Shown here: positions 19,078 to 60,342 of the stretch, one piece after another | Layout of the letters: every line of letters begins with the position of its first letter | Position numbering within the stretch: position 1 is the first letter of the stretch | Source of the DNA: a virus | Lineage: Duplodnaviria; Caudoviricetes | Reading direction: 5' to 3' (one strand) | DNA length: 64,000 nt | IMG/VR virus record: IMGVR_UViG_3300021431_000075 | Location: 544,001 to 608,000 of that record | Notes under the pieces: model-generated | Seen by the model: the letters and a program-made list of their open reading frames with translations, nothing else | Told to the model about the DNA's origin: nothing | The model's database searches: none | Program-made: the position numbers and the translations under genes

Positions 19078-21981
19078 TTATTCATTTATTGTTATTTCTG
19101 GACAATCCGCAAGCACTCTTGAGTATAACACTTTTGCTCCTGTTTGTGTCGGATGCACCATATCTGAAGAAATATGCCCTATTATATCACTCGAACTTAA
19201 TGCACTGAACACATAAGATGAATTGTTATATGAAACGGTGATTTCATTGTTTGTTTCATCTTTCGATTCTATTGTGTAATTGTCATTGACACTACCGTTT
19301 GAATTATATATATGATTTGCTGTGTTTGTGTCAAGAACCTTGTCTATACTTTTGCTTGTGTATATAGTGGCAGCAAGCGTTTCGTTTCTCCAAGCAAATA
19401 ATGTCGGCGAATTATGCCATATGCCATCTTCATCTGTACCAACAGCATCTGCAAAATCTATTATTCTACATCCAAGAGTTTTTATATAATTGTTATATCC
19501 AGTTCTCTGGACTCTCGGAGTTGTAGGAATAGTAGATATTACAACATCAAAACCATATTCATGAGACAAACTGATTAAAGTATCTATATAAGTCTTTTGA
19601 TAAGAATTGATTGTATAAGCATCATTTACCTTTTCTTCGGTTCCGCCACCATTCATACCATGACACCAAACAACTATAGATGGAACATATCCCATTCCAA
19701 GTAATGTAGTTAAATCTGAAATTCCCTCATCTGGTTTTTCTCCTGCCTTGTTATCATAAAGTGTTCCGAAATATAAATCTCTAAAATAATAATAAGGCCA
19801 TCTGTTTGCGTCATTATATGAAAAATATGAGTCGCCAAACATCCATATGCTTTTGGTTAAATCCTTTGGAAAGAATTTCACTTCAGCATCAATAATAGTT
19901 TGCGTACCATTATTTTCGATAAAAGGTCGTCCGACACCCCATTTGTTTTTAGTAGTATACTCAAAGATGTCACCTTTGCTATTAAAAATTTGTATTTTTG
20001 AAACACATTGAACATATGTAGAATTAGAAGTACTATCAATAGTTGTAGACACTACAACAGTCGTGTCATTATCTATAAATTCACTTGGCAATGTTTGAGT
20101 ATCTTCAGTGGTAGTTGATGTGTAATACCTATGAAGAATCGCTTGTGTTTGAGTTAATTCAAGCCAAGAAGCCGCATATAATCTTTTATTATTGCCATTA
20201 GTATAACCAACACCGAAACACACATTCTCTATTGTTCCCTTAACTCTTCCAACATAGGTACAGTTCTTTGAAATATTAATAGATGATGTATATATAACTC
20301 CGGAAGCATCAATAATTCCCTTTGCCGTTAAACAGTTAAATTTTTTTGGCGGAACATATGAACTAATATCAATATCTGGTATATATTCTGGCTTGATTTT
20401 TCTATCTGCTGAATACGGAACATAATTTGTTATTACAGAACCTTCTTCAACCTGTATAGAATCTTTATAATCATAATCAAATGTAAACCTTATATAAGCA
20501 TCACCCGCACATTCTACATATGTATAAATATTGGTTCTGTCACCTCTAATGTACTTTTTATCAGAGTCATAGACAGCCATGCCTGATGTATTACCAAGCG
20601 AACCATAATGATTAAGTATCAATCCATTCTCTGAAATCGGAATATAACCAGTACAACCAACTCTACCTTCATGTTCAGTACCTGCCCAAGAATATTCATT
20701 ACCTGAAGTAGAAGTGATTTGCACATTTAATTTAAAGTCAGGATCATTTGGATTACATAAATTCTTGCTATATATAATTTCAAAGAAATTTGCTTTATCT
20801 GGTGTAACTGCACTATCAACTAATTTTGTTGTTGATACTGAATTATCAGCAATTCGACCATCTTTCATTATCCAGTAAGGTTCAGCATAAGGAATGAATT
20901 CGCTTGGTAATGTACTTCCTTTGTATATTGCGTACTGGTTATTTTCGTTTGGATATAAGTTAAAACGAACATAAGCATATGAAGGGTTATCCGTTTTGGA
21001 TACTGCTATAGCACTACCGGGATTTGTAGTCTTATCAAGGAAAGTTATGTAGTCTCCATTCTCATCATATGCAACATAAGCTGCTACTCCTTGACCGCTT
21101 TTGTTCATACAACTAATGCAGATAATATCTTCTGTAAGCGGTATAAGTGGAGTACAACCGTATGTAGCATTATATGTGGGATTGGAGATATCTCCGACCA
21201 CTCCGGTATTTCTATTTACATATCTTCCTACTTCTATTGTGTCCGGATTAAGCAAATTCGTTCCGATAACCAAATCCATCGTAGCATCTGCAATTACCTT
21301 TCCTTGTGCAGCACTCAATGGTCTAACAGAATCATTAGTTGTTAAATTATTAACACTAATGTCATCTTTTAATTTCGATGCGGATATACTATTGTCTTTA
21401 AGTTGTTCTTCACCGATAATATTTGTTTTAAACTCACTTTCTAAATAATTATATGGGATATATTCATTTGGATAGTTAGAAGAAGTTCCTCTAATTACCA
21501 TAAATTCATCAAGTTGTGCGATTGCACCAGAATATCTTACATAAGCGTCTCCTTCTTGATATGTTGCTTGTTCATTGCTATAACCATGAGTAAATACTTT
21601 TTCGCTATTATAACAAGCATATCCTAAATAAGTACCACCCTTTTTTGCCAATGCAGCATAGCAACCGGCTTCATCAATAGGTATGTAATCTGTAGTAAAA
21701 GAAGCACCGACTGTTGAACTCGGTTTGAGTTCACCATCTAATCTACTGACTAAATAATCATCAACCTTTTTTCTTTTATCAAAAAGATTTATACGAGTAC
21801 TATCAATAAATTTATTAGCAATGTTTGTTAGCGGTTCAACTTTATCATTTATTTCTTCAGTAGCATCTTGCACATTTGTAGAAACTAAATCACTATTGGT
21901 ATTGTTGAACGTAATTATAGAAGCGTCTGAACCAATAAAGTAATCAAATTCTTCTACATTTATTTTCGTTACCTTAGCCAT
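19078..21981 (-). CDS. Cassette 1L: virion-type protein with repeated beta-sandwich-like modules and a C-terminal SGNH hydrolase
   Basis: MAKVTKINV N-terminus; three NLxNP...TxYIP...AYDxxxxYI...YVRF repeats; FGDS, GMNG and DMVHP motifs. Confidence 0.75.
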   Translation of the reverse strand: MAKVTKINVEEFDYFIGSDASIITFNNTNSDLVSTNVQDATEEINDKVEPLTNIANKFIDSTRINLFDKRKKVDDYLVSRLDGELKPSSTVGASFTTDYIPIDEAGCYAALAKKGGTYLGYACYNSEKVFTHGYSNEQATYQEGDAYVRYSGAIAQLDEFMVIRGTSSNYPNEYIPYNYLESEFKTNIIGEEQLKDNSISASKLKDDISVNNLTTNDSVRPLSAAQGKVIADATMDLVIGTNLLNPDTIEVGRYVNRNTGVVGDISNPTYNATYGCTPLIPLTEDIICISCMNKSGQGVAAYVAYDENGDYITFLDKTTNPGSAIAVSKTDNPSYAYVRFNLYPNENNQYAIYKGSTLPSEFIPYAEPYWIMKDGRIADNSVSTTKLVDSAVTPDKANFFEIIYSKNLCNPNDPDFKLNVQITSTSGNEYSWAGTEHEGRVGCTGYIPISENGLILNHYGSLGNTSGMAVYDSDKKYIRGDRTNIYTYVECAGDAYIRFTFDYDYKDSIQVEEGSVITNYVPYSADRKIKPEYIPDIDISSYVPPKKFNCLTAKGIIDASGVIYTSSINISKNCTYVGRVKGTIENVCFGVGYTNGNNKRLYAASWLELTQTQAILHRYYTSTTTEDTQTLPSEFIDNDTTVVVSTTIDSTSNSTYVQCVSKIQIFNSKGDIFEYTTKNKWGVGRPFIENNGTQTIIDAEVKFFPKDLTKSIWMFGDSYFSYNDANRWPYYYFRDLYFGTLYDNKAGEKPDEGISDLTTLLGMGYVPSIVVWCHGMNGGGTEEKVNDAYTINSYQKTYIDTLISLSHEYGFDVVISTIPTTPRVQRTGYNNYIKTLGCRIIDFADAVGTDEDGIWHNSPTLFAWRNETLAATIYTSKSIDKVLDTNTANHIYNSNGSVNDNYTIESKDETNNEITVSYNNSSYVFSALSSSDIIGHISSDMVHPTQTGAKVLYSRVLADCPEITINE

Positions 21982-22003
21982 TTCTTATTAGTTAGAAGCA
22001 TTT

Positions 22004-22078
22004 TTATTGATTAACCGGTGTCATTTCGATTGAATTGTCTTCAAAATCTGCATCCTTTATGATTACAATCTTTCCCAT
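22004..22078 (-). CDS. Micro-ORF MGKIVIIKDADFEDNSIEMTPVNQ (24 aa)
   Basis: Manual translation; one of four homologous micro-ORFs, similar to the N-terminus of 59791..60342. Confidence 0.65.
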   Translation of the reverse strand: MGKIVIIKDADFEDNSIEMTPVNQ

Positions 22079-22141
22079 GAAAACTTTGCTACATATGTTA
22101 TTTTAAAATGATTAAAACAAGAGTGTTAGTATTTTTAACGA

Positions 22142-22252
22142 TTGTTTCTAAACAGGTAAGTTTCAGTTAGTTACAACTTCATATAATGCTATTGTGAACA
22201 AATTGAAGTCTTTGAAACCCAGCAAGATGCAAACTTACCTGTTTAGAAACAA
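22142..22252. repeat. Switch locus 1: 22-bp perfect inverted repeat with 67-bp spacer
   Basis: TTGTTTCTAAACAGGTAAGTTT (22142-22163) and AAACTTACCTGTTTAGAAACAA (22231-22252). Confidence 0.95.
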
Positions 22253-22277
22253 ACTTCTAAAAATAAGAGTGCAATCG

Positions 22278-22352
22278 ATGGGAAAACTTTTGATTATCAA
22301 AGATGCAGACTTTGAAGAAAATTCTATTGAAAGAACACAGGTAGAACAATAA
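22278..22352 (+). CDS. Micro-ORF MGKLLIIKDADFEENSIERTQVEQ (24 aa)
   Basis: Manual translation; lies directly upstream of the 22373 gene. Confidence 0.65.
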   Translation: MGKLLIIKDADFEENSIERTQVEQ

Positions 22353-22372
22353 AATAACTTCCGTATCAAGAC

Positions 22373-24442
22373 ATGGGTAATCCAATCATAACGACAATAA
22401 ATGTTGAAGATGTTCCATATAAGATTAAGGGTTCATTGTATGATGGACTTGGCAACAATACAGATGGTGGTATCACGCAGGCTGCAATAACTTCTGAGTT
22501 GAATAGCATCAATGAAACCATAGACAACATCGAGCACAACAATACATTGGAATATGAAGAAAGCATCGTCATTTTAGACAATCTGGATGCATCTGTTGTT
22601 GAGATTACGTCAAGTTATGTTAATGCAAAGAATCTGAAGTCTAACGGTATTGATGTTGCCACGCTTGAAGATATCAGCACATTTGCATCAATAGATGACA
22701 TTAACGATAAACAAGACAAGATAGACAATATCGGTTATGAAGAACTTAACTTCCAAACACCGACAATAGAATTCAGGGATGATAATGATAATTATGTCGG
22801 GGAAGTTTCTCCAGAGGCAATCGCAGCAAAGAAGTTCTTAATCAAGACAAGTCCGGAAGATATTGGGGTGGACATAAGCGGTATTGTTGGCGGCACCACA
22901 GTTGCAAAGACGCTCGGGTTCAGTGACATTGTCCATGTCATCGGTTACGGTCAGTCTCATATGTCCGGCACAAACAGCGGACTCCCGGTATCGACAACAC
23001 AAAACAGGGCAAATCTTAAAAGATTTGCAGGTGGAGTCAGACCGTATGATACATTTGACCTTGATTCAAGCCGTAGAGTCATTATCGAACGTCAATCTGG
23101 TGTCGAACCTACATATCTTGAAATGTCTGACAATAAAAGCGCATGCTTGACGCAAAAGTCCATCAACTATATTGCTGCATCTGTTGATAGTCTTGTTCCA
23201 TTGACAGAGCAGAGAGTAAAATATGAAAAGAACCAAAATAACACATACAGTCCGAATCCTTCTGTAATAAATGCATCTACATCTGGACATGCGGACGGAG
23301 AGACTCCATTGACCGGTTTCTGCGAAGGTTTCTTGAACGCGATTGAGAAATCATACGGAAACAATTTCGGATTTGAAATGCTTGCTACTTGCTGTGCTTA
23401 TGGTTCTGCTGATTTCCTGAGCCTTTGTCCGCTTGACAGAGATGGCATTATTCATAACGAAAAAGAAATAGACGGGACGAACTTCAACTACTTTGACGTT
23501 TTGATGATGACTGTCAAGGAAGCAAAAGAACTTGCAGATGCAGAGAATAAGTCATATTCTGTTGATGTGGTCATATATATGGAGTCGAATACGATAGCTG
23601 AAAACCGTAGTGGAACTTCTGTTAGTTTGACCGTTCAACAGAAAGCATACAGAATCGCGCAGCTTTTCACGCTCATTAACCAGAGAGTCAAAGAAATAAC
23701 AAAGCAAAGCAATGATATAATATTCTTATGTGACCAGAGCAAGACATATATGTCACAGAGAGAAGCCATACGCATTCTTTGTATCGACAAAGAATTTGCT
23801 TTGACGGAAGCTGAACAGAACGTACTGGAGACTTTGACGAACAATGATATTGAACCATACGACATGAACAAGATTTATCTTGTTATCGGTTCCAATAACT
23901 ATGAAATCGGCACTGACCACATTCATCATCCATCATATGCACAGAAACTTGAAGGAGCAACAATCGGAGAGATATATGCAAGGATTCTCTCAAGAAATAA
24001 TTTCGAGCCTTTGTATCCAATAAAGTTCAAGGTGATTGACAATGATATCTATGTCAAATATCATGTGCCTGTTTCTCCAATCGTAATAGACATGAATGCA
24101 GTGAACGGAGCGCATACTTGTCCGAACTGGTGTACAGAACGTGGTGAAATGTACGGTTTCTCAATCTTCAACAAGAATACATCTACTTATGAACCGAATT
24201 TCATCACTGCTGCGGAAGTGACAGAAGGAGATACTATTAAACTCACGTGTGAAAGTTCTCCTGTTGGTAAAGTTCTTGAATACTGTTATAAGCCTATTGA
24301 CAATAGTGGTAGTGGTTTGCCAACGAATTGCGAGTTCGGCAATGTCAGAGACTCGCAAGGAGATATTGCAAAAATCACAATCAACAACACAGAACATCCA
24401 TTGCATAACTGGTCAATCGGCTTCTCAAAAGATATAATGTAA
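22373..24442 (+). CDS. Cassette 1R: virion-type protein with a sialate O-acetylesterase-like (SASA/SGNH) domain
   Basis: Shared N-terminus YKIKGSLYDGLGNNTDGGITQAA; GYGQSH and DHIH motifs; C-terminal GNVRDS...LHNW typical of phage SASA-like tail proteins. Confidence 0.7.
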   Translation: MGNPIITTINVEDVPYKIKGSLYDGLGNNTDGGITQAAITSELNSINETIDNIEHNNTLEYEESIVILDNLDASVVEITSSYVNAKNLKSNGIDVATLEDISTFASIDDINDKQDKIDNIGYEELNFQTPTIEFRDDNDNYVGEVSPEAIAAKKFLIKTSPEDIGVDISGIVGGTTVAKTLGFSDIVHVIGYGQSHMSGTNSGLPVSTTQNRANLKRFAGGVRPYDTFDLDSSRRVIIERQSGVEPTYLEMSDNKSACLTQKSINYIAASVDSLVPLTEQRVKYEKNQNNTYSPNPSVINASTSGHADGETPLTGFCEGFLNAIEKSYGNNFGFEMLATCCAYGSADFLSLCPLDRDGIIHNEKEIDGTNFNYFDVLMMTVKEAKELADAENKSYSVDVVIYMESNTIAENRSGTSVSLTVQQKAYRIAQLFTLINQRVKEITKQSNDIIFLCDQSKTYMSQREAIRILCIDKEFALTEAEQNVLETLTNNDIEPYDMNKIYLVIGSNNYEIGTDHIHHPSYAQKLEGATIGEIYARILSRNNFEPLYPIKFKVIDNDIYVKYHVPVSPIVIDMNAVNGAHTCPNWCTERGEMYGFSIFNKNTSTYEPNFITAAEVTEGDTIKLTCESSPVGKVLEYCYKPIDNSGSGLPTNCEFGNVRDSQGDIAKITINNTEHPLHNWSIGFSKDIM

Positions 24443-37385: not shown

Positions 37386-37405
37386 TTCTTAATACGGAAG
37401 TTATT

Positions 37406-37480
37406 TTATTGTTCAACCTGTGTTCTTTCAATAGAATTATCTTCAAAATCTGCATCCTTGATAATCAAAAGTTTTCCCAT
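37406..37480 (-). CDS. Micro-ORF MGKLLIIKDADFEDNSIERTQVEQ (24 aa)
   Basis: Manual translation; differs from the 22278 copy by synonymous changes and one E/D substitution. Confidence 0.65.
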   Translation of the reverse strand: MGKLLIIKDADFEDNSIERTQVEQ

Positions 37481-37504
37481 TGATTGCACTCTTATTTTTT
37501 AGAA

Positions 37505-37617: not shown

Positions 37618-37679
37618 CGTTAAAAATACTAACACTTTTATTTTAATCATTTTAAAATAACATATGTAGCAAAGTTTTC

Positions 37680-37760: not shown

Positions 37761-37780
37761 AATAACTTCAACATCAAGAC

Positions 37781-44457: not shown

Positions 44458-44667
44458 TGATTGCAAAATGATTACTTTTAGTATTAAAATTACAAAACTG
44501 CGAGGTTTCTTATTCAAGCGAGTTTGCTACAGCATAGAACTACTTACAATTCTCTAATGCACAGAAACTTACACCAACTAATTGAAAGAGTAGAACTTAC
44601 CTGAATAAGAAACGTTGGAATTTTGATATTTTAATACTAAATGTAATCATTTTGCAATCAATGAGTA
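44451..44667. repeat. Switch locus 3: inner site pair with 67-bp spacer, plus outer 40-bp inverted repeat over both start codons
   Basis: GTTTCTTATTCAAGCGAGTTT (44505-44525) and GAACTTACCTGAATAAGAAAC (44593-44613). The outer arms 44451-44490 and 44628-44667 match at 39 of 40 positions. Confidence 0.9.
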
Positions 44668-46720: not shown

Positions 46721-46762
46721 TAAAAAGATAATGAGCAACTATTTTAGTTGCTCATTTTATCT
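46721..46762. terminator. Bidirectional intrinsic terminator
   Basis: AAGATAATGAGCAACTA-ttt-TAGTTGCTCATTTTATCTT between convergent genes. Confidence 0.7.
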
Positions 46763-46768
46763 TCAATT

Positions 46769-47545
46769 TTAATTATGCTCTATATGGAAATAAGTGTCTA
46801 TGTTTGATTCATTCAAAACAAATGTTACATCAACTGTTTGCGCTGCACTTCCATAAGCAGCCATGTTCAAAGCGAAACCGCCGCCTGTTGATGGAAGATA
46901 ACTTGACAAGTCGATAACTGTTTCTACTGTTGCACTACCTTTCCATTGCGAATCTCTTGAAATTTCTGTCAAATCATTTCCGGTTGCATAACAAACTCTG
47001 ACTTTATATCCGGGCGCTACATAAATCGTATAGTTGTTATCACTAACTGCTGTCAAGCATTTGGTAGTAGTTCCTTCAACCGTATCATACCATCCATATA
47101 TCTTGTTGTAATAAGTATCTGTTGAAGTATAAACTTTGAATTTTTTATCCGTTCCCCAACTACCGGTTACTGAAACGATATTGTGTTCTTCATAGAATGA
47201 AACATGTTCTTCTACTGCAATTGTCTTAGTGGCAGAAATCAATGAATTATAAACAGACGTTGCACGGATAACAATACTTTGCGCACTTCTATTCATATCA
47301 ATCGTCAAAACGCCATAACTGTTGATAGACGCGATTTCGCTTCCTTCTACAATGCTCCATTCGACGTCGGTTTCTTCCGTGTTGGCAGGATTGTAAACTA
47401 TACTATATTCAACGCTTGTCGTGTTGCTTGATATAGTTGAAGGTCCATCAATGCTTATGCTTTCAACACGACCTGCCAAGAAAGTTACTTGTCCCAAGTT
47501 ATTATTTGAGAAATCCAAATCGGTCACTTTTATCGCGATACCCAT
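46769..47545 (-). CDS. Small companion protein of cassette 4L with an Ig-like (Big_2) domain
   Basis: MGIAIKVTDLDFSNNNLGQVT N-terminus; VESISIDG...YNPANTEETDVEWS...ASINSYGVLT Ig-like pattern. Confidence 0.75.
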   Translation of the reverse strand: MGIAIKVTDLDFSNNNLGQVTFLAGRVESISIDGPSTISSNTTSVEYSIVYNPANTEETDVEWSIVEGSEIASINSYGVLTIDMNRSAQSIVIRATSVYNSLISATKTIAVEEHVSFYEEHNIVSVTGSWGTDKKFKVYTSTDTYYNKIYGWYDTVEGTTTKCLTAVSDNNYTIYVAPGYKVRVCYATGNDLTEISRDSQWKGSATVETVIDLSSYLPSTGGGFALNMAAYGSAAQTVDVTFVLNESNIDTYFHIEHN

Positions 47546-47564: not shown

Positions 47565-48905
47565 TTATAAAATTGTTGTTTTGGTATAAGGAGTCTTGTA
47601 TGCATGCTCGGATGCACTCTTTGCAGAAGTTAATGCAGAAGAAGTGATTGTTCCGAATGATGATGTTTGTGGATATACATTCGGGTCTGTGTTTGAAGTT
47701 GACGAATCACTAAGAGCAAAAACGTTTGTTCCCCATATGGGTTTCCAATCTATTTCCGCAAGCGGTTTCATATCTCCGAATATTCTAAACAATGACAAAT
47801 AGAGAACATAAGAGCCGATTAATCTACCAATGCCGTCTTCCATATGTGCTCCGTCTGATGTAATATGACCAGCCGAACCATAAGCATCAAGTTCCTGATT
47901 CGTTCTTCCGTTTTGAATAGCGGTTCCGGAAGGAACTATGAAATCAACGATGCCGTTGGAAACCAGCGTTTGACAGATTGAACACATCGTCCCCCACATC
48001 GTATCGCCATATGTAATCTCTCCTTCTGTTGATTTTTTCGGATTCGTCAAAACATAGCCCCAAATTGGCTTATAACCGATATAACCATTAACAAGAGACG
48101 TTAATGTCTGCAGACCGGTTCCTTCATTGTTTATGATTGTGGTTTCACGGTCGCTCAGGTCTGATGCCTGATGCGTCATGATTATATTCCACTTATTGCC
48201 GTTGTCAAGAGCATTTTTAATCGTAGTGTTCGCGCTTCCGCTCGAAGTCCAATAGCCATTAGTGCTTTTGTATTCGAAATAATAATATGGCGTTTCATTA
48301 TTGAATCTGTTAATGTGTCCTTCAATATTCATCCCAGACAAATATAACACACCGATTATAAGAGTAATTCCGCTATTTGCTTCTATTAGACGTGGAAGAT
48401 ATACGCAGTTGTCGATGCTGAATGAATTACCGATGAAGAGAATCTTTATTTCCTTTGCTGAACTTCCGCTAATAATCGGAACATCATCAACCAGAGCACA
48501 AGACAAACCATCTTCGTCATACTTCATTCCGATGTTGCCATCTGCATCAACGACATAAAAACCATGTTCCATCACTTTCACACAATAAGGCATGGACATC
48601 TTGACGATGTCAAGCAGGGACGTTTTGAAATGAGTGCTCAACTTAGCAACATCGAATCCGTTCTCGTCATATTTCATGCCGACTTTTCCATTATTGTCTG
48701 TAACTGTGAAACCTTCTTCTTCTGTTATGCTTATTGATGAGAAACTGGATTCAACATCATTGACAAGATCGATAACATTGTCAAAACATTCAGTTATTGC
48801 AGACTGTGTCATTCCGCCATCTGTATTAGAACCGGTCGTGTCATATAACTTATTAAGGTCATAAACAACACCTTTGACTCTCACCTTGGTTACATTCGTA
48901 CCCAT
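47565..48905 (-). CDS. Cassette 4L: virion-type protein with a DUF4886-like SGNH hydrolase (start corrected to ATG 48905)
   Basis: MGTNVTKVRVKGVVYDLNKLYDTTGSNTDGGMTQ; KILFIGNSFS, HQAS, PSGTAIQNGR and DGAH motifs. Confidence 0.8.
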   Translation of the reverse strand: MGTNVTKVRVKGVVYDLNKLYDTTGSNTDGGMTQSAITECFDNVIDLVNDVESSFSSISITEEEGFTVTDNNGKVGMKYDENGFDVAKLSTHFKTSLLDIVKMSMPYCVKVMEHGFYVVDADGNIGMKYDEDGLSCALVDDVPIISGSSAKEIKILFIGNSFSIDNCVYLPRLIEANSGITLIIGVLYLSGMNIEGHINRFNNETPYYYFEYKSTNGYWTSSGSANTTIKNALDNGNKWNIIMTHQASDLSDRETTIINNEGTGLQTLTSLVNGYIGYKPIWGYVLTNPKKSTEGEITYGDTMWGTMCSICQTLVSNGIVDFIVPSGTAIQNGRTNQELDAYGSAGHITSDGAHMEDGIGRLIGSYVLYLSLFRIFGDMKPLAEIDWKPIWGTNVFALSDSSTSNTDPNVYPQTSSFGTITSSALTSAKSASEHAYKTPYTKTTIL

Positions 48906-48952: not shown

Positions 48953-49061
48953 GTTTCTTATTCAGGCGTGTTTGATGCGGCATATAACTACTTACAATTC
49001 TCTAATGCACAGAAACTTACACTAACTAAGGGAAAGAGTAGAACTTACCTGAATAAGAAAC
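48953..49061. repeat. Switch locus 4: site pair with 67-bp spacer
   Basis: GTTTCTTATTCAGGCGTGTTT (48953-48973) and GAACTTACCTGAATAAGAAAC (49041-49061). The spacer and left leader are a direct near-copy of locus 3. Confidence 0.9.
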
Positions 49062-49103: not shown

Positions 49104-52085
49104 ATGAGCACTAACGTAACCAAGATGAGAGTTAAGGGAGTTGTTTATACTCTCAATGGAAAGTTATATAATTCTACCGGTTCGAACACAGACGGTAGCA
49201 TGACGCAAGCTGTTATTACATCTGAATTGACAGATGCTAAAGATATGGCAGAGTCTGCTCTCGCTATTGCTGAACAGGTTCGTGAAGAAGGAACGACAAC
49301 TATTGAAGGAAATGTGACGAACAACCCTGATGAAGAAGACTTGACCACTGTTATCAATGCACAGACGAATCTTGGTGAACTCAAACTCAAGAACAGAGCT
49401 TATGTTCCTGTTGAAAATTCAAAAGGCTATGTCATTCTCCGAAAGAATAATAATTTTTCATCTCAACTAACACAAACCAACACTGTTTATGAGATACGAT
49501 ATAATTTTGATTTGAATGGTGGAATAGTTGAAATTCCAGAAAACTGTACATTAAAATTTAATGGTGGTTCTATCTCCAATGGAACACTTGTTGGTTCTGA
49601 AACATATATTGATGCGATTGATGAAAATATTTTAATACAAATAACAATTGGTGGAACTTGGTCAAATGAGATAATAACAGACAAATGGTTTAATGATGCA
49701 AATATATTAAACATTAATGCTATTATGCGTGAAGATGTATATCAGCATATTTATATGACTAAAGATTATATTTGCAATGCACTTGAAAACACTGGTTATT
49801 TAATTCCATTAAGCAATACCTATATTCATTTAATCGGTTCAATTACAAGCAATCTAACAATTACAAATCATAGATTGATATTCATATATACAAATCCTAC
49901 ATTTGAAAGTTTAAAAAATATAACTATTGATGGCGAACGAGTTGGAAAAATAAACGGTAATCGAAGTCTTATTCCAATTAGTGAAGAAGGAGCTTTACAA
50001 TCAAATGGAAAATACAAACATACAGAAAACGGAATAGGTATCGCAATACGTGGAAATATAGATGGTGTTACAATTAAGAATCTTGAAATTTATGAATGTC
50101 ATTGTGATGGTATTTATGCAGCATCTGGAAAAAACATTATTATACAAGATTGTTATATTCATGGTTGTATCAGACAAGGAATCTCTATTTGTTCTGATGT
50201 GTCATCTGTTACAAATTCGGAAAATGTTTTGGTAAAAGATTGTCGAATAGAAAATATTGTAGATTATGAGAACAACGGTTACGTTATTGAATCCGGACCG
50301 GGTGCTGCTATTGATATAGAACCGAACAGAAATGGTGGTTTTTGTAAAAATATATCAATAGAAAATATTACATTAAACAACTGTGTAAAAGGTATTCAAT
50401 TGGATGCATCACGCTCTGTAGCAACTGGAGAAAGTTTTGTTAGCAATGTAAGAGTATGTAACATTAAAGCAAGCAATGTATCAAGTTATCTATTAAGTAC
50501 ATATTCTAAGGCGGAAAACATAACAATTGAGAATATTACAGTTGAACACGTGAAGTATGAAAAAGATGATAATGCTTCATCTGGTTTATTCTTTATGTGT
50601 ATGTATGCTAAAAATATATTGCTTAATGATGTTGATGCAGTTGGGATAGGTAACGGATGTGTAATAAACGGTTCAACAGATATCTTGATAACGAATAGTA
50701 CAATAAGTTGCATTCGATTATTCTTCAGTGATTCAACAGATAATGAAAATGTAGAATTCAAAAATTGTAGAATTGATGCAAATAATATCAGCAATTCTCA
50801 TCAAGCAATTAGCGGAATAAATTTCTCATTAAATTATTTTAATATAATTTCTACTGACGGCTTCAACACATGGTTGTCCAATACCATATTTAAAGATAAT
50901 TATATTACAGGTTCAAACATTAGATTCGGTGAAAGCAATACAAGTAATGTGTTGAAAAACATTATTTTTGAGAACAATGAATTCAATATTACAAGAAATG
51001 CCCAAATTATTGTTTCTGCTGCCGATGTTCTTTTTGCAAATAATACATTCTTTTGTAATAATAATGCAAATGTTAAAGTTATAGTTAGAGGAATTGTAAA
51101 TAATGCTAATATTCGATTCATAGATAATCAACTTATTGATTATGTAAATAATTATTCAGATTTGATATATGATGGAAATCTCGGTTCATTGTATATAATA
51201 ACTATTGATGGAAAAATATATGATAATGGTTCTTGGAATTATACAAACGGAGATGCCATTATGATAAAACGTGGGTTGCTTGAAAACATACCTGATATAG
51301 AATCAGGAAATGACGGTGTTTCATATTATGCTACCGATATTCAAAAGAATTGCTACATTCAACAAAGAAATGACAAATTCTTATGGGCAGATAGTGATGG
51401 TTATCCTGTGTTCATTTACAATTATGAAGGAAGTGCCAATGTATTACATATTATTGAAAAACAAGGTCCATTGTCAGACAAACCAATATGTGGAAAAGTA
51501 GGAATGCGGTATTTTGAAACTACAAATAACCAACCTATTTATATAAAGAGCGGTACAGTTCCTGCATATGACATCACATTATCATTTGTTGACAATCCAA
51601 CTTATACCGGTTCTATTAATGAAGGTTATAGTGGTGGAAATTTTGTATTTACGTTTGAGAATGTAAAAAAGAGAATTGCTTTTCAAAAAACAAATAATGT
51701 TGGAACTATATTAACAGAAATATTTAACGCATTAAATCCATATTTTAACATTACAGTAGATACAGAAAACAACAAATTTACAATAATTGGAAATTTTATA
51801 GGTTCACATGTTCCACAAATATCTGGAGTATATATATATTCTACATATCCATTAAAATTGAGTGCTTCAAGAAGTGCTATAACTCGTGGAAGTCTTATTT
51901 GGGTTGATGAAGAAGGAGTAGATGTAACGAACGTCTCTACTGTCAAGGGAACTACTGTTCAGAGAGAAGCATTGACTCTTGCCGCTACTAACGAAGGTCT
52001 GAGGTACTATGACACTACTCTTAAGAAGTACGTTCTCTGGAACGGAACACAATGGACAAATCTTGATGGAACAGCATTGTCTTAA
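49104..52085 (+). CDS. Cassette 4R: tail spike-like right-handed beta-helix protein (putative polysaccharide depolymerase)
   Basis: Shared N-terminus; IPENCTLKFNGGSI; parallel beta-helix repeats (DGIY, RQGISI, AAIDIEPN); C-terminal GLRYYDTTLKK...WNG module. Confidence 0.8.
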   Translation: MSTNVTKMRVKGVVYTLNGKLYNSTGSNTDGSMTQAVITSELTDAKDMAESALAIAEQVREEGTTTIEGNVTNNPDEEDLTTVINAQTNLGELKLKNRAYVPVENSKGYVILRKNNNFSSQLTQTNTVYEIRYNFDLNGGIVEIPENCTLKFNGGSISNGTLVGSETYIDAIDENILIQITIGGTWSNEIITDKWFNDANILNINAIMREDVYQHIYMTKDYICNALENTGYLIPLSNTYIHLIGSITSNLTITNHRLIFIYTNPTFESLKNITIDGERVGKINGNRSLIPISEEGALQSNGKYKHTENGIGIAIRGNIDGVTIKNLEIYECHCDGIYAASGKNIIIQDCYIHGCIRQGISICSDVSSVTNSENVLVKDCRIENIVDYENNGYVIESGPGAAIDIEPNRNGGFCKNISIENITLNNCVKGIQLDASRSVATGESFVSNVRVCNIKASNVSSYLLSTYSKAENITIENITVEHVKYEKDDNASSGLFFMCMYAKNILLNDVDAVGIGNGCVINGSTDILITNSTISCIRLFFSDSTDNENVEFKNCRIDANNISNSHQAISGINFSLNYFNIISTDGFNTWLSNTIFKDNYITGSNIRFGESNTSNVLKNIIFENNEFNITRNAQIIVSAADVLFANNTFFCNNNANVKVIVRGIVNNANIRFIDNQLIDYVNNYSDLIYDGNLGSLYIITIDGKIYDNGSWNYTNGDAIMIKRGLLENIPDIESGNDGVSYYATDIQKNCYIQQRNDKFLWADSDGYPVFIYNYEGSANVLHIIEKQGPLSDKPICGKVGMRYFETTNNQPIYIKSGTVPAYDITLSFVDNPTYTGSINEGYSGGNFVFTFENVKKRIAFQKTNNVGTILTEIFNALNPYFNITVDTENNKFTIIGNFIGSHVPQISGVYIYSTYPLKLSASRSAITRGSLIWVDEEGVDVTNVSTVKGTTVQREALTLAATNEGLRYYDTTLKKYVLWNGTQWTNLDGTALS

Positions 52086-53092: not shown

Positions 53093-56000
53093 CTAACTAC
53101 TTTGTTCAGTTTGCATATAGACTTCTTTATATACACCAACTTGTGTAGAACTTCCAGCACTGATACATCTATAACCAACTTTTAATAAATTTGTCATTAG
53201 TACAGGATTTTCTATTTCTATAGTAATGTTTGTATTAGTTGTTTTTAGTATTTTCCATTCATTACTATTTTCATTCGAAGGATTTGTATCACCTTTTGCA
53301 TCAATGATTAATTTTCCATTTTTTAATTCATAACCATACATTACATTAGATGTAGGAGTAGTACATTTCACTCTTGTTGTTAAACAACTGTTAATGTTAT
53401 CATCAAATAACACAGCCTGTTCAGAATATAGTTCAAATACGCTGTTTATAAATTGGTTTGATTTACTCGCTCCAATAAGTATATCATTTACTGTACCTTT
53501 TATGTGACATTTTATGTAACTATTTATGAAGTTAAATGCACCGGCATATATAAGATGACTATTGTTTGATGAAGAAGTAAATTTACAATCTACTACTTGT
53601 AAATTATTTATGGTTGATTCATTATCATAACAACGGAAGATGTTGTTTACACCTGTAATATTACAATTGATTATCTGAACATCATCTGTTCCAAAACCAA
53701 ATGAGCAAAATGTTGAACTTCCATTATCTAATATATTTCCATTATATAGACGTACAGTATTATTGCTAATAATATTATTATTTCCATTCATATAGTACAA
53801 ACCTCTAAAAAAGTCAATTGAATTATCCGCAACATCAATATTAAATACATTGTTATTGCAAATAATATTATCAACTCGATAAACATCTGTATTTCCACCG
53901 GTTTGTCCGATAATTGTAATGAAATTTGTATATGTGTGTTTTATTGCTATTATATTATCTTCAAATCTTGTACCTGCAGAACGTATCTGAACTTTTCCTT
54001 CAATATAACAATTTTTGATTAAACAGTCTTTAAATGCTGTTTTGTTGTTTCCTTGCATAAAAATAGCATAAAATGTACTACCATTATTATATGTGTTTAT
54101 AAATTTACAATTAATGATATTAAGTTTCTTTACATTTGCCAAACTTACTACTGCAGTAATACAACCATTAGTTGTAGAACTGTTTATCTCACTAAAAGAA
54201 CAATTATTTATGGTAATTGCTTCATAAGAATGACCATATATTGCAAACTGAATAGAATTTGCACTATTTTCAACAGAATTTATATTTTTAAACTCACAAC
54301 TTTCAAAAATAACATTTGCATTGACATCTTGAATTTTTACCAGTGAACGTGCAACCCACTTTGAGTTTGTTTCATCATAATATTCCAATGCTAAACCATT
54401 TGCATCAAAAATAGTATTTTCAACTCTGAATGAACTTTTGAACGTAACTACTGTATTTTTATTCAAAACTTTTATAGTTCCGCCATATATATTAGATTTT
54501 GGTTCTATCTCACCAGATATTCCATAAGTATTTGTAAGATGTATTGTATTACTTATAAAATGAGCTTTGCTTAATGCAATTGTATCATCAGTAATACCAT
54601 CACCGGTAGCACCGAACCATTCAGGGTAAGCTTCTGCAATATTCCATGAACCATCAAAATTGATATTTTCACCAAATATTTGTTCTTTATCAGCAACAAT
54701 AGATGTATTGTTACCTGTTATTGTAATGATATTGTTTGAATCATTTATAAATTTACCACCTATGAAACGTAAAGTGATATTATTTGGTAATACAAGAGAA
54801 TCTGACAATATAACATCTTCTTTTATATCTATGAATTTTTCAACTTCTATGTCAGTCGTTGCTGTATAATCTATCGGATTTATTTCATAACAAGGAACGA
54901 GTGGATTTGAAGAGTTATTTCCATATCTATATTGACTACCAAGAATATCATGATTATAATTATTCTTAACGCAAATATATTTGTAGTTTTCAACTATGAT
55001 TTTGCGTGTATTTCTTGAAACTGACAAATAACTATTTGTAAGATTTAATCCACAATCAAATCCTTGCCATGAACCAATATAACCATAATTGAAATATCTG
55101 CGTTTTATGCAATTAATAGTAGCAGTTTCAATAGCTTCGAAATAACCTTTATCAAAAACAACATTTCCACTGATAGAGCATATTCCATAACCTTCAAGAT
55201 TTGGTGATGCATTTGCTACATAACCAATTCCTTCGATAACAGAATTTGTTAAAGATATTTCACGACTACAATTTATTATACCTTCTTGACATGCCTCAAT
55301 CACTATATTATCAAAAATAGCATTTGTTGTTTGTCTGGAACAAAATAATCCAATATAACAATATCTTATCAAGAAATCTCTTTTGTGAGTACACCATTCA
55401 AAATCATCTATTACTCCGATATTAAATCTTTCAACATATATGTTTTCAATACTTCCTCTAACGAATGTAGTAGTTTGTTCAACGTTATGTACACCAGTAT
55501 TGTCATGATAACGAATATAACTATAAGATTCACCCATTTGTATTCCTATTGTCATATATAAATAAGACCACATATATTGACAATATTCTTCAAGAGAACA
55601 AATCATAGGATATACATCATCATTATCAACATAAGTATGTGATGATAGATAAGGTATTCTATAATCTCCTATTCTTTTTCCAATAGAATAACAAATATAT
55701 CTATATAAAATATTAGTTCGTACATCATCTATTCCGTTTAATTTTCTGGCAACGTAATTTCGTACCCAAGCAAACATATTCTCACGAACTTCATCATCTT
55801 CTTCAGAAGTAAATGTCGGATTTGAATAATTCGTCTCATAATACTTAATAAATGATGTGATTAAATCTTCATTAACTCTTAAGTTTCTCCAATCTGAATA
55901 TAAGATTTTACACAATTGATTAAACGTAAGACTTTTACCAGAATATGTTTTCGGCAATTTTTCATATGAATTATCTCCAATATATCTTAATGTATAACAT

Positions 56001-57742
56001 CCTGTATTGATAAACGAACCTATTATGCTAATTCCGATTTTAGCAGTAGTTAAAATAAAAGTTTTTTCACGCCCACTTCCATTAAAATTTATAACGGTAC
56101 TTGTATTTAAACGTAATCTTTTTATTGTTGTTTGTATAGTTAATGATTCATCAAGATAACCGTTTATTATATTCTCTGTAAAATCAGAATGTAAATTTAT
56201 AGTTTCATTAACATAATAATATCTCGGCAACAGTAAAATATTAAGTCCGATTCTCTTGCTAATACTTATTACTTTATTTAGTATTGATGAACAATATTCA
56301 GGTTCTGAAACAATATTATTATAACTTATTGCTCCCCACCACTCTATAAATAAATTTTCTACATTCCAGTTTCCTTCTAATTCTATATTATCAAATATCT
56401 TTATCATATTTGCATCAATATTAGCATTATTTCCAACTATTATTCCATTAGTAATTGAACCTCCATTAAATTTCAAAACACATCCATAAGGAAGTATAAG
56501 TTTTTTTGAAATATTATATCTTCCTTCATATATAGAAGAATTTATGGCAATGCAAGGAGTATAAAGTAAAGCATGAGATGTATTGTTTGTCAATGTATAT
56601 TCATTTCCATTAACAACATCCGGTTCTTTTTTGGTTGTTCCAAGTTCATTAAGAACTGTACATTCTCCAAGAACTGTTAGAACTAATGATGGTGTTCCAA
56701 TATTACTGCTTTCAACTGGAAATAAAGCAATAATTCTATTAATAAGTGTTTCTAATGGTATAGCTTCACTTCTTTCATATCTATTACCATTTATATTAGA
56801 ATATGTATCTAATGATATATTACTTTCTATACTTCTACTGCACAATATTGATGTATGAATGTCTGTTCCCGGTGTTGAAGTTCCAATGTATATATTATCA
56901 TCCGATTGCATAATATATTCATTGTTAGAAGTAGTTAGTTGTTGTTTATTTTTATCATATAATAATTCACCTTGACCAAGAGTTATTACATCTCCTTTAT
57001 TCAAAGAGAGAACATTAGACAGATAATGCGAAATACCAGTTTCTAATTGACTTGAAGATTTCATCCCAGTTGTATTGCAAGTAGAAATTGCAGTCAATTT
57101 AAAAGGTTTTTGTTGTATTGGTGACTTTTTTGCTAAATAAACAATATTCGTTGAAGGTAGATTGATAATATCTCCAAATTCATTATTATTAGAATCTATA
57201 AAAATACACCCATCAAGTCCCATTATTATATTTCCTTCATCAAATTGACTTAAATCAATTTGTGAATCAGATATATTGTATTTGAACGAACCGGAAATGA
57301 TTTGATTGCTTAAACTTAATACTGGTTCGTCATCTGTAACTTTTAAATTAAAGTTATTTCTGATTTCAAATATCGTATTTGTCTTTCCGGCAATCTGTTC
57401 TTCAATCGGACTATCTGAACGAAGAATACAATATCCTTTTGTATTTTCGACTGGAACATATGCTCTGTCTTTGATTTTCAGAACACCAACACCTGTCTGT
57501 GAGTCTAAAACTGTCGTAATATCGTCTTCATCAGGATTGTTAATTACATTTCCTTCGATATTGAATCTTCCATCTTCTTGCAACTGGCTTATGTCATTGT
57601 AGATTTCATCAATTGCTTCTTGAATGTTTGTTGCTTCAGTATTGCTTACAGTCTTATCAAAAGAAACTTTGGATGCATCTTGGCTGATGTTGTAGTTTAC
57701 TCCTTTGACTCTTATTTTGTTTACAGTACTATTGATAGACAT
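53093..57742 (-). CDS. Cassette 5L: large tail spike-like protein with two beta-helix regions
   Basis: MSINSTVNKIRVKGVNYNI; shares IEGNVxNNPDE...RAYVPVENxKGY with 49104; LKFNGG...IEWWGA and LRFIGG...PEWFGATGDGITDDTIAL (pectate lyase 3-like starts). Confidence 0.8.
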   Translation of the reverse strand: MSINSTVNKIRVKGVNYNISQDASKVSFDKTVSNTEATNIQEAIDEIYNDISQLQEDGRFNIEGNVINNPDEDDITTVLDSQTGVGVLKIKDRAYVPVENTKGYCILRSDSPIEEQIAGKTNTIFEIRNNFNLKVTDDEPVLSLSNQIISGSFKYNISDSQIDLSQFDEGNIIMGLDGCIFIDSNNNEFGDIINLPSTNIVYLAKKSPIQQKPFKLTAISTCNTTGMKSSSQLETGISHYLSNVLSLNKGDVITLGQGELLYDKNKQQLTTSNNEYIMQSDDNIYIGTSTPGTDIHTSILCSRSIESNISLDTYSNINGNRYERSEAIPLETLINRIIALFPVESSNIGTPSLVLTVLGECTVLNELGTTKKEPDVVNGNEYTLTNNTSHALLYTPCIAINSSIYEGRYNISKKLILPYGCVLKFNGGSITNGIIVGNNANIDANMIKIFDNIELEGNWNVENLFIEWWGAISYNNIVSEPEYCSSILNKVISISKRIGLNILLLPRYYYVNETINLHSDFTENIINGYLDESLTIQTTIKRLRLNTSTVINFNGSGREKTFILTTAKIGISIIGSFINTGCYTLRYIGDNSYEKLPKTYSGKSLTFNQLCKILYSDWRNLRVNEDLITSFIKYYETNYSNPTFTSEEDDEVRENMFAWVRNYVARKLNGIDDVRTNILYRYICYSIGKRIGDYRIPYLSSHTYVDNDDVYPMICSLEEYCQYMWSYLYMTIGIQMGESYSYIRYHDNTGVHNVEQTTTFVRGSIENIYVERFNIGVIDDFEWCTHKRDFLIRYCYIGLFCSRQTTNAIFDNIVIEACQEGIINCSREISLTNSVIEGIGYVANASPNLEGYGICSISGNVVFDKGYFEAIETATINCIKRRYFNYGYIGSWQGFDCGLNLTNSYLSVSRNTRKIIVENYKYICVKNNYNHDILGSQYRYGNNSSNPLVPCYEINPIDYTATTDIEVEKFIDIKEDVILSDSLVLPNNITLRFIGGKFINDSNNIITITGNNTSIVADKEQIFGENINFDGSWNIAEAYPEWFGATGDGITDDTIALSKAHFISNTIHLTNTYGISGEIEPKSNIYGGTIKVLNKNTVVTFKSSFRVENTIFDANGLALEYYDETNSKWVARSLVKIQDVNANVIFESCEFKNINSVENSANSIQFAIYGHSYEAITINNCSFSEINSSTTNGCITAVVSLANVKKLNIINCKFINTYNNGSTFYAIFMQGNNKTAFKDCLIKNCYIEGKVQIRSAGTRFEDNIIAIKHTYTNFITIIGQTGGNTDVYRVDNIICNNNVFNIDVADNSIDFFRGLYYMNGNNNIISNNTVRLYNGNILDNGSSTFCSFGFGTDDVQIINCNITGVNNIFRCYDNESTINNLQVVDCKFTSSSNNSHLIYAGAFNFINSYIKCHIKGTVNDILIGASKSNQFINSVFELYSEQAVLFDDNINSCLTTRVKCTTPTSNVMYGYELKNGKLIIDAKGDTNPSNENSNEWKILKTTNTNITIEIENPVLMTNLLKVGYRCISAGSSTQVGVYKEVYMQTEQSS

Positions 57743-57772: not shown

Positions 57773-58189
57773 CGTTTCTTATTCAGGTAAGTTTTGTTCT
57801 TTCCTTTCCGTCTTTGAAAACTGCTCGTTCTTTCCTTAAAAATGTTTTTTTATTTTTCAAGTCAAGAACTTCATCGAAAACGATTTTACTATTTATCTTG
57901 ATTTGACGCTTTCTTGTTATTCTGTTTTTGCTAATCAGATAAAAAGAAACATCCATTTCGATTGAGAGTTCTCAAATGCTGACAGTCACTTGTCATGACT
58001 AATCAGCCAAAGAAACACTTTTATTTTCATTATTTATCTTTGCATTTTGCGAGACCATTCAAAACGCTTTTCAGGTTTATTAGCACAGAACAGCTGCTGG
58101 ACTGCGATTTCTTGAAGTTAAGAAATCTTAATAAAAACACGTAACGCATTATTAATATTGAAGAACAAAACGTACCTGAATAAGAAACG
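57773..58189. promoter_or_regulatory. Switch locus 5: 29-bp inverted repeat (one mismatch) around a 359-bp segment with two left-pointing late-promoter motifs; candidate invertible promoter / expression site
   Basis: CGTTTCTTATTCAGGTAAGTTTTGTTCTT (57773-57801) and AAGAACAAAACGTACCTGAATAAGAAACG (58161-58189); GATAAATA on the minus strand at 57890-57897 and 58031-58038. Confidence 0.75.
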
Positions 58190-58229
58190 TTGGATTTTTG
58201 ATTTTAATACTAAAAGTAAGCATTAATCA

Positions 58230-59768
58230 ATGAGTATGGATATAGGCAAGATAAGAGTAAAGGGAATTGTTTATAATCTCAAAGATAATCTATATGACAC
58301 GCTTGGAGACCACACTGACGGAAGCATGACTCAGGCAGCAATAACCAGCAATTTTGATGAGATTACTTCTGGCATTGCATCAAAAGCTGATGTTCAGAAC
58401 GACATCAATGCCGATTTTGACATAGCTGATGATAATAACCACTCTATTGTACGTTTCACTGACGGACATATCCAGACGCAGAACTTTGATAGCCATGATG
58501 TAAACAAATTAAAACAGAACGTTGGCTTAACAAAATATCAAGAGTTTTCTGACGAGAGTGATTATTATGTCGGAAACATCGTTCTTCATGACGGCTTGCT
58601 TTATAAGTTCACATCAAACCATACAGCAGGCTCATGGGACTCATCAGAAGTTGAAGAAACTGACATTACTGACAACATAGAAAAATCTACTGATGTTATC
58701 AATTCTTCATATGATTTTGATATTGCTGATGAAAACGGTCTTTCTATTCTAAGAGTATCAAACGGATACTTGAAAACAAAGAATTTTGACAGCGAGAACA
58801 TCGACACAGAAGTATCTCAAAAGACCGATGAGTATCTCCAGTATCTTCGTGGAGGTTCCCCATCTACTATCATAACAGGAATTCCTTCCAATGCAGACAT
58901 AGCAATTAATGACACAATCAAACAAATTCTTGCCACGTGTCCATATGCCGATATCATCCTCATAGCAAATCCTTCAACCAGACGCAACAAACAGCGTTTC
59001 ATAAAGAGGCGTGCATATATCGAAGAACTGAAAGCATTTGCAGATTTCTATTCATTTGGTTTCATCAATTTAAGAGATGCTGGCATATCAAGACCGATGG
59101 TAACGGACACGTCTTATTATACAACTGACGGAACTCACACAAACGATTTGGGAAGCGAGAAACTATTCAATTACATATACGGATTTCTAACACAACGTTA
59201 TAACGGAGAAGAAAATATATCATCAAAGAAAATACTTGTGATGGGAGATTCTTCTTGCGCTCATCAGAATCCAAGTAGCTCCTCGCCGGACGGATTCTTC
59301 TCTTGGAGTACATTGTTGATGAAAAAGTCCAATAGAAGATATGAACTGTTTGATTCTTCAAAATCTTATAATATCGGCGATGTGGTTAGACGTGAAGTGG
59401 AATACACATTATCGAACAACAAAACGGTTTCCATTCCGTATCTATACGAGTTCGTTAACAATCACAGCGGTTCTTGGACTCAAAATGATGTCAAAGTCGT
59501 TAAGAAAGATGTGTATTTGGCAGCAGTCGGCGGTTCTGGATGGAGTGCTGTAGCAGAGACTGGATACACGTCTTCGGACAGAGCAGTTTCTGTCCAGTTC
59601 AATGACTGGAAAGCAACAAAGACATTAGACCCGGTTACGCAGCAAGTGAATCCGGAGGATATAGACATCATTATCATAGGAACTGGCGGAAACGAGTTGA
59701 ACAAATTCAAACTCGATTATTCATCAACAATGAAGTATTTGTGTAATGATGAAACTATTGTTTATTAA
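58230..59768 (+). CDS. Cassette 5R: virion-type protein with a circularly permuted SGNH hydrolase and CBM-like modules
   Basis: KIRVKGIVYNLKDNLYDTLGDHTDGSMTQ N-terminus; DGTH block precedes the MGDS, GGSG and GGNE blocks. Confidence 0.75.
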   Translation: MSMDIGKIRVKGIVYNLKDNLYDTLGDHTDGSMTQAAITSNFDEITSGIASKADVQNDINADFDIADDNNHSIVRFTDGHIQTQNFDSHDVNKLKQNVGLTKYQEFSDESDYYVGNIVLHDGLLYKFTSNHTAGSWDSSEVEETDITDNIEKSTDVINSSYDFDIADENGLSILRVSNGYLKTKNFDSENIDTEVSQKTDEYLQYLRGGSPSTIITGIPSNADIAINDTIKQILATCPYADIILIANPSTRRNKQRFIKRRAYIEELKAFADFYSFGFINLRDAGISRPMVTDTSYYTTDGTHTNDLGSEKLFNYIYGFLTQRYNGEENISSKKILVMGDSSCAHQNPSSSSPDGFFSWSTLLMKKSNRRYELFDSSKSYNIGDVVRREVEYTLSNNKTVSIPYLYEFVNNHSGSWTQNDVKVVKKDVYLAAVGGSGWSAVAETGYTSSDRAVSVQFNDWKATKTLDPVTQQVNPEDIDIIIIGTGGNELNKFKLDYSSTMKYLCNDETIVY

Positions 59769-59790
59769 ATCTTTATATTAAAACAATTAT

Positions 59791-60342
59791 ATGGGAAAAG
59801 CGTTAATTATCAAAGGTGCTGATTTTTCTGCACACTCAATAGGTCCAATTCAAAGAATCGTTCAAATGGAATTTGAGCAGTCAAACATTATGTACAGACA
59901 GAGTGACTGCGGTGTTTATCCAAAACCGTCTGCGCAAGACCAAGTAGTTCTTCCGAAACGATGCAGAACAACAAATGGTACATTGATAGAAGTTGCACCA
60001 AACCAGACCATCACCATCAGCGGTTTGAAAGATCTATTTTATCGAATATTCGAATATCAGGCTTATACAAATGGAGCCGATGAATACAAAACAAATTATG
60101 CATTCACTGGAATAAACTATGGAACTTGGACTGACAATGTTTCAAATTGCTTAACTCCATATGTTTCCAGTTCTACAGATTCGAATATTGCATCAGGCTC
60201 AAGCGTGAACACAATAACTTATACAAATACACATGAAATGACAGTATATATTGGAATGCGTGTTGGCTGGAATGTTGACAGCGGAAAGAACGACACTAAC
60301 ATCTTGCCTGAGGAAATATCAGTGTTCGTTGAATATGATTAA
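59791..60342 (+). CDS. Small companion protein of cassette 5R
   Basis: MGKALIIKGADFSAHSIG N-terminus, homologous to the micro-ORFs. Confidence 0.75.
   Translation: MGKALIIKGADFSAHSIGPIQRIVQMEFEQSNIMYRQSDCGVYPKPSAQDQVVLPKRCRTTNGTLIEVAPNQTITISGLKDLFYRIFEYQAYTNGADEYKTNYAFTGINYGTWTDNVSNCLTPYVSSSTDSNIASGSSVNTITYTNTHEMTVYIGMRVGWNVDSGKNDTNILPEEISVFVEYD

Follow-up and report, generated by a model that had tools for sequence, protein, structure and literature searches.

The locus considered here lies in a 64,000-nucleotide stretch of viral DNA (the window), which corresponds to positions 544,001-608,000 of one 673,114-bp virus record (Duplodnaviria; Caudoviricetes) with direct terminal repeats and a completeness rating of 100%. 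Positions are those of the window unless contig L001 is named. A sequence-only reading of this stretch had proposed a dispersed shufflon-like system, in which inversion between related sites upstream of putative virion enzyme genes selects the protein that is expressed. Genes with matches in PHROG to tail sheath, large terminase, SbcCD and primase mark the genome as that of a very large tailed phage (GC content 41%), and because a TAnnTTTG element stands 30-45 nt ahead of the start codon in some of its genes, the sequence points to a Bacteroidota host; the names of the samples may indicate sheep rumen data sets. A megablast search of a phage collection with 9 kb of window sequence gave no match, and no account of the 673-kb genome was found in a literature search.

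Divergent gene pairs and their upstream sites

Fourteen complete genes, forming seven divergent pairs, are spread across ~52 kb. The five head-to-head pairs listed in the sequence-only reading are all present, as are its ten genes and ten sites, and the true total is 14 of each, with four to the right of the window. The first pair consists of gene A (19078-21981, minus strand; 967 aa, with the N-terminal module described below and a Pfam Phage_fiber_rpt match) and gene B (22373-24442, plus strand; 689 aa, a tail fibre protein by its match to PHROG 4201, E 2.7e-39). It is followed by C (34890-37385, minus; 831 aa, with an upstream open reading frame (ORF) and the N-terminal module) and D (37781-40750, plus; 989 aa, BNR and Laminin_G_3 domains), by E (42706-44457, minus; 583 aa, GDSL/SGNH esterase) and F (44661-46700, plus; 679 aa, GDSL esterase), and by G (47565-48905, minus; 446 aa, DUF4886) and H (49104-52085, plus; 993 aa, right-handed beta-helix). 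The fifth pair is formed by I (53093-57742, minus; 1549 aa) and J (58230-59768, plus; 512 aa, CBM5/12 and a weak GDSL match). Gene K (minus; 871 aa, peptidase M14) begins its span at 61541 and continues past the window end at 64000 to 64156; site S11, inner segment j4, site S12, genes L and M, site S13, segment R, site S14 and gene N, an alpha/beta-hydrolase match, lie to the right of the window (L001 2204-11362).

The related N-termini and unrelated ends claimed earlier were recovered as an N-terminal module of ~45 aa common to the 14 proteins, with differing downstream parts; tblastn located exactly 14 occurrences of the module in the genome, solely at site-bearing genes. Past the N-terminus the proteins diverge into GDSL/SGNH esterases, DUF4886, beta-helix and BNR plus LamG types, with further matches to alpha/beta-hydrolase, peptidase M14, CBM5/12 and phage fibre repeats, and two of the 14 (B and F) match PHROG tail-fibre families. 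We infer that the 14 proteins are alternative virion fibres, which the shared N-terminus presumably docks on the virion.

Each gene also has, as had been claimed, a related site upstream that points towards it. The pattern ACTTACCTG-N3/4-AGAAAC matches the window exactly seven times (22144-, 22233+, 37508-, 37597+, 44595+, 49043+ and 57774-, the sign giving the strand) and has a one-mismatch copy at 58170+; it had no match in 100 shuffles. At the sites of the minus-strand genes E and G (44505-44524 and 48953-48972) the gene-proximal TGAATAAGAAAC is kept and the inner eight bases differ. A scan of the full genome, which had been suggested as a check, added four sites, all a little beyond the right end of the window; the pattern itself revealed three of them, and the 12-mer core the fourth, whose inner half is degenerate. 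All 14 sites, seven per strand, precede complete genes at distances of 30-160 nt.

The single consensus of ~21 bp that had been proposed holds as a pattern, but it comprises two classes that differ at the centre (TTT or AATA), and some inner halves are degenerate. The six TTT-class sites, AAACTTACCTG-TTT-AGAAACAA, precede genes A, B, C, D, M and N, in the order site, upstream ORF of 24-26 aa, gene. The eight AATA-class sites, AAC-nnn-C-n-TG-AATA-AGAAAC, precede genes E to L, with the start codon 30-50 nt further down. The 12-mer cores TGAATAAGAAAC (AATA class, eight copies) and CTGTTTAGAAAC (TTT class, six copies) occur in the 673 kb at these 14 loci only, against an arithmetic chance expectation of ~0.08 per genome for each. 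An exact-site scan of viral contigs returned two matches only, both on unrelated contigs; they were rejected as relatives and judged to be chance matches.

Within each divergent pair the two sites enclose an inner piece, which is of one of three kinds: a blank of ~70 bp (i1, i2, j1, j2 and j4), segment P (375 bp) or segment R (1.7 kb). In the TTT class, S1 (22142-22163, minus; AAACTTACCTGTTTAGAAACAA) and S2 (22231-22252, plus) enclose i1 (22164-22230), and S3 (37506-37527, minus) and S4 (37595-37616, plus) enclose i2 (37528-37594). In the AATA class, S5 (44505-44524, minus; core TGAATAAGAAAC intact, inner half AACTCGCT) and S6 (44594-44613, plus) enclose j1 (44525-44593), S7 (48953-48972, minus; inner half AACACGCC) and S8 (49042-49061, plus) enclose j2 (48973-49041), and S9 (57774-57793, minus) and S10 (58169-58188, plus; inner half AACGTACC) enclose P (57794-58168, minus).

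Rearranged assemblies and the moving pieces

Recombination at the sites and re-pairing between related genomes had been predicted, and both were seen in public assemblies (ENA, JGI and NCBI), among contigs that encode exactly identical proteins (designated by L-numbers as contig labels), in the form of alternative junctions with their reciprocal products. With the inner piece in square brackets, the first arrangement is A[i1]B, C[i2]D, E[j1]F, G[j2]H, I[P]J, K[j4]L, M[R]N; it is that of this genome, of ERZ28612959 scaffold_1 and of an SRR873597 contig. In ERZ28612978, R abuts B at S2 on a scaffold of 40.7 kb (L006) that elsewhere runs collinear with the window, and a +306-bp offset on the same scaffold puts P at E|F; i1, recognised by a GGG variant, separates M from N (L037), and a j4-type blank, with a flipped j segment, lies between I and J (L012). 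In ERZ12302814 a 22.9-kb contig with 26x coverage (L015) reads E[P]F, with the crossover point at S5, and a second contig, which ends inside i1, joins i1 to M (L043). In JGI 3300002641, A[R]B is carried on one 2.6-kb contig, R being joined to both S1 and S2 (L007), P adjoins F on a contig that starts inside P (L016), and I[j1]J is present (L014); R adjoins B in GCA_001684375.1 as well.

At least three arrangements thus occur among the compared assemblies, and because the flanks are 99.9-100% identical throughout, rearrangement is far faster than point change. Reciprocal products were found within single assemblies, both for R and i1 (L006 with L037, ERZ28612978) and for P and j1 (L016 with L014, JGI 3300002641). 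The JGI assembly holds the original R-M junction (L045) alongside the R-B junction of L007, and two isomers therefore coexist in it. None of the isomers observed had R or P flipped in place, and none of the observed junctions was a TTT x AATA hybrid.

The E[P]F junction localises the crossover of the AATA class. The E flank joins the P end within GTTTCTTATTCA, a stretch of 12 bp: the E and I flanks differ directly outside it and the P and j1 ends directly inside it, while the other side of the exchange has 22 bp in common. The inner half-sites AACTTACC, AACTCGCT, AACACGCC and AACGTACC always move with the inner piece, and the same precise exchange is seen in three assemblies. Judged from these junction sequences, AATA-class exchange is site-specific, because 12 bases are too few for RecA-dependent homologous recombination. 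The difference between TTT and AATA falls exactly inside the crossover window and, since tyrosine recombinases, as known for Cre and FLP, fail to exchange sites whose overlap regions differ in sequence, the two classes would be kept from recombining with each other by their central bases.

A recombinase elsewhere in the genome had also been predicted, and a tyrosine recombinase with intact catalytic residues was found between two of the sites. Segment R is flanked by S13 and S14, a perfect 24-bp inverted repeat of the site, and encodes, 5.6 kb beyond the window end, a 330-aa protein with Pfam Phage_int_SAM_5 and Phage_integrase domains. Residues R187, K210, H290, R293, H316 and Y325 are invariant in its alignment with 22 homologues (23 sequences), and it is the sole PF00589 match in the genome. 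Searches of PDB sequences gave spurious weak matches only, and a search of viral contigs gave zero relatives. Matches to PF00239, the serine recombinase family, number five to six and are all far from the locus, so that no Gin-type serine invertase stands next to the movable segments. Small serine recombinases lie at 76.6, 86.0, 119.4, 198.8 and 308.1 kb of the genome (L018-L022); for three PF00239 genes the neighbours were examined, and in 3/3 the catalytic domain follows an N-terminal extension, the adjacent ORF matching TnpB (OrfB_IS605) in two and having no Pfam match in the third. The serine recombinases of the genome are accordingly read as IS607-type transposases, not invertases.

The other property of the moving pieces is a promoter-like motif. 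Two 8-mers, GATAAATA and AATAAATA, are enriched >20-fold in upstream regions, and the underlying nATAAATA has 262 copies genome-wide. Of these, 181 are intergenic, and copies are most frequent 30-39 nt ahead of start codons, that of the terminase gene (TerL) included. It often takes the form GATAAATA or AATAAATATCTTATAAT, with examples in the window at 17181(-), 31831(-), 33284(-) and 33312(+). The motif is probably the phage's own, late promoter; we take it to be comparable to the T4 late promoter TATAAATA. Across the seven divergent spacers, nATAAATA is found in P and R only, with none in the five blanks or in the leaders between site and start codon, and a weight matrix trained outside the region gave the same distribution. 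The AATA-class leaders, at 30-50 nt, carry no promoter motif.

Both promoter-bearing pieces are directional. P has two copies of GATAAATA (57890-57897 and 58031-58038, minus strand) that face S9, and R has two (window-equivalent 70769 and 71133) that face S14, with a strong hairpin terminator after the recombinase gene, just inside S13 at its other end. The motifs therefore aim at genes I and N in the present arrangement, gene I adjoining the promoter end of P; those of P aim at E in L015, and those of R at A in L007. A TAnnTTTG promoter in P facing gene J was considered and dropped, the match being the reverse complement of CAAAGATAAATAA and the better-supported motif facing the opposite way.

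Relatives of the recombinase number 159 (E <= 1e-5), nearly all on metagenome contigs. A phage with an 84%-identical recombinase (L024) has the site CGAAACTTACC[T/C]GTTTAGAAACA at both ends of its R segment, of which one bears two outward GATAAATA motifs and the other a terminator; the upstream ORFs are kept and the flanks have diverged. In this phage a TnpB insertion lies inside the recombinase segment, and the block of core genes that lies here between A|B and C|D is opposite in orientation. A 57%-identical homologue (L049) is flanked by ...ACCTGTTTAGAAACA repeats and lies between divergent genes with shared N-termini. Two more distant homologues, P0032 (41% identity) and P0077 (39%), are in other contexts, where flanking repeats are absent, and the architecture is therefore not general to the whole recombinase family. 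About one-third of the homologue clusters are known from contigs of 1.3-2.6 kb only; this would fit assembly breaks on either side of an invertible segment, a weak indication, since short contigs predominate in that collection in any case.

A proposed switch of expression sites

We propose, with a probability of roughly 0.7, that the locus is a shufflon-type multiple-inversion system which, in this 673-kb Bacteroidota phage, moves promoters and not coding segments. The recombinase would exchange DNA between oppositely oriented sites, with the result that inner pieces are flipped and handed from pair to pair. The gene that abuts the promoter end of P or R would be transcribed and the remaining genes would not; R would serve the six genes of the TTT class and P the eight of the AATA class, so that one gene per class would be expressed at a time, for a maximum of 6 x 8 expression states. 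The recombination part of this proposal is strongly supported. The expression part, argued from the placement of the motif, is moderately supported, and the blank-fronted genes are predicted to be silent. In the sequence-only reading, whole genes were switched from upstream and the expressed protein was thereby selected; the upstream exchange of pieces is observed, and the choice of expression is suggested by where the promoter motifs lie. That reading had missed the promoter segments, the recombinase segment, four cassettes and the division into two classes.

A number of points weigh against the proposal. Shared stretches in the TTT class measure 46 bp and ~95 bp, and the crossover is only loosely mapped there, so that homologous exchange could account for the TTT class taken alone, which is less decisive. 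The recombined flanks observed in this class are all of the same type, showing like-with-like joins only. The mixture in the JGI assembly is drawn from assembled contigs and could reflect a co-assembly. Service of the AATA class by the same single recombinase is assigned by elimination. The promoter role of nATAAATA is argued from enrichment and position, and other promoters may lie in the blanks or leaders. In particular, a TAnnTTTG match, TAAGTTTG, is formed across the junction of the site with the 'GCATC' end of i1 or i2; it aims over the blank at A and D and might give some transcription of these two genes. This match to the Bacteroidota -7 element lies at 22237(-) and 37521(+).

The same junction match also speaks for the alternative that the sites recombine without selecting expression, with all 14 genes transcribed from unrecognised promoters and the exchanges serving to reshuffle or spread cassettes (in the manner of an integron, or of a hotspot) or amounting mainly to selfish movement of R. 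All 14 genes have start codons of their own and six are preceded by an upstream ORF, as this would allow, and phages with many simultaneous tailspikes are known. Such a scheme is nevertheless unlikely: among the spacers nATAAATA is confined to P and R and faces one end, a terminator closes the other end of R, the P/R-type layout is kept in the phage with the 84%-identical recombinase, and the AATA leaders leave 30-50 nt in which the promoter motif is absent.

Two further explanations dispense with site-specific recombination. Were the motif an operator or promoter box of a fibre regulon, the arrangements would arise by homologous recombination between duplicated upstream regions, for which the ~390-bp inverted copies at A|B and C|D and the TTT flanks identical over 46-95 bp would provide substrates. 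This is very improbable, given that AATA partners have only 12 bp in common on one side and 22 bp on the second and are exchanged precisely in three assemblies, that the recombinase is bracketed by sites, and that the site persists next to flanks that have diverged; in L024 the repeat is confined to the site itself. Alternative junctions produced as assembly chimeras at repeats are more improbable still. Exact repeats of at least 46 bp in the TTT flanks are able to mislead short-k assemblers, but the AATA junctions share only 12-22 bp, identical junctions recur in independent ENA, JGI and NCBI assemblies, reciprocal products exist, and contigs of 8-88 kb span junctions at ~26x coverage.

In its logic, the promoter-moving switch proposed here resembles the expression-site inversion systems of Mycoplasma (vsa/HvsR of M. 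pulmonis, vpma/Xer1 of M. agalactiae and vsp of M. bovis), in which many surface-protein genes have a 5' site, there are one or few promoters, and inversions catalysed by a locus-encoded tyrosine recombinase bring a different gene to the promoter. The likeness lies in the site in the 5' leader of all 14 phage genes. A smaller number of promoters than of genes would be a second point of likeness; it is suggested by the confinement of nATAAATA to P and R among the seven spacers, with the TAnnTTTG match at the i1/i2 junctions to be set against it. The phage system differs in belonging to a virus, in that its genes are putative virion fibres and enzymes with cassettes scattered over ~52 kb among core genes, and in having two classes of site and, as its movable promoter pieces, both P and R, the latter housing the recombinase.

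Among shufflons, that of R64, in which Rci acts on sfx sites, shares with this locus the presence of at least three sites in both orientations (14 here), a locus-encoded tyrosine recombinase and isomers joined at the sites. The phage-encoded inversions of Gin (Mu), Cin (P1) and Min (p15B), the last with several crossover sites, likewise alter host range by way of tail fibres, but they use serine invertases and exchange fibre C-termini, whereas the serine recombinases of this phage appear to be IS607-type. C-terminal fibre tips are also exchanged by the Rin shufflon of Bifidobacterium prophages (PMC6109161) and in BV01-like phages (PMC13596623). These and R64 have in common with the present locus a tyrosine recombinase, several asymmetric sites in both orientations, inversions only, and a population mix of receptor-binding variants. 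Unlike them, where C-terminal coding segments are swapped onto a fixed 5' gene part within 2-4 kb, the phage genes stay complete, the pieces are non-coding or carry the recombinase, and inversions can span tens of kilobases.

Invertible promoters (invertons) control capsule and SusC/D loci in Bacteroidales (cited in PMC8042965), and viral invertons are only starting to be listed (PMC13501310). An inverton, like the pieces described here, is a promoter segment within inverted repeats beside a Phage_int_SAM_5/Phage_integrase recombinase in a Bacteroidota setting; R has a 24-bp inverted repeat and outward promoter motifs. An inverton flips in place and turns one operon on or off, whereas the phage segment relocates among seven loci. 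No description of a phage shufflon that moves promoters among whole genes was found in the literature searched.

The known switches of Mu, P1, p15B, Rin and BV01-like phages swap the tips of one fibre gene, and this phage appears instead to move a promoter among complete genes, a trick of bacterial antigenic variation apparently used genome-wide, in which inversions can reach tens of kilobases and pass through core genes. If expression tracks the promoter pieces, each lineage would have at its disposal dozens of combinations of fibres tipped with esterase, lyase, sialidase-like or peptidase domains, and such fibre cycling, if it occurs, would directly oppose the phase-variable capsules of Bacteroidota. 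The odds are about even that the system is the first expression-site shufflon described in a virus, with one recombinase housed in a movable promoter cassette, two exclusive site classes, 48 states re-sorted every few generations and a design that recurs in related uncultured phages. The recombinase is compact, and its site pair has a 12-bp core and two apparently orthogonal spacers. The moving pieces also explain why metagenome assemblies break in these regions.

Leader peptides and intergenic repeats

The TTT-class leaders contain short ORFs, which lie upstream of gene A (22004-22078, minus; 24 aa, MGKIVIIKDADFEDNSIE..., a peptide conserved in six TTT-class leaders), gene B (22278-22352, plus; 24 aa), gene C (37406-37480, minus; 24 aa) and gene D (37680-37760, plus; 26 aa), and beside M and N (L001 7375-7452, minus, and 9308-9382, plus). 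In this genome the six read MGK[IL][VL]IIKDADFE[ED]NS..., and with both leaders of L024 included the 24-26-aa peptide becomes MGK[ILV][VL]I[IV]KD[AES][DS]FE[ED]NS...; AATA-class leaders are without it. Because its copies differ by many synonymous changes, the peptide looks to be under selection; possible roles are those of a leader peptide and of a small assembly factor. A frameshift or read-through that would fuse it to the main gene was considered and rejected, because the two are in different frames and a stop codon intervenes in the main frame.

The A|B (21982-22372) and C|D (37386-37780) spacers, 15 kb apart, are inverted copies of ~390 bp. The duplication takes in the sites, the blank and the upstream ORFs, and core genes, including that of a 1248-aa protein, lie in between. 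Short intergenic repeats bearing promoters or terminators, of ~95% identity, are found near fibre genes at 17255(+) and 18879(-), and 18921-19004 is similarly repeated at ~46722-46804; TTTTTTTTGTGCAATAAATAAACAAAATGCATTTTT, which is present twice, is an example of such a repeated intergenic stretch.

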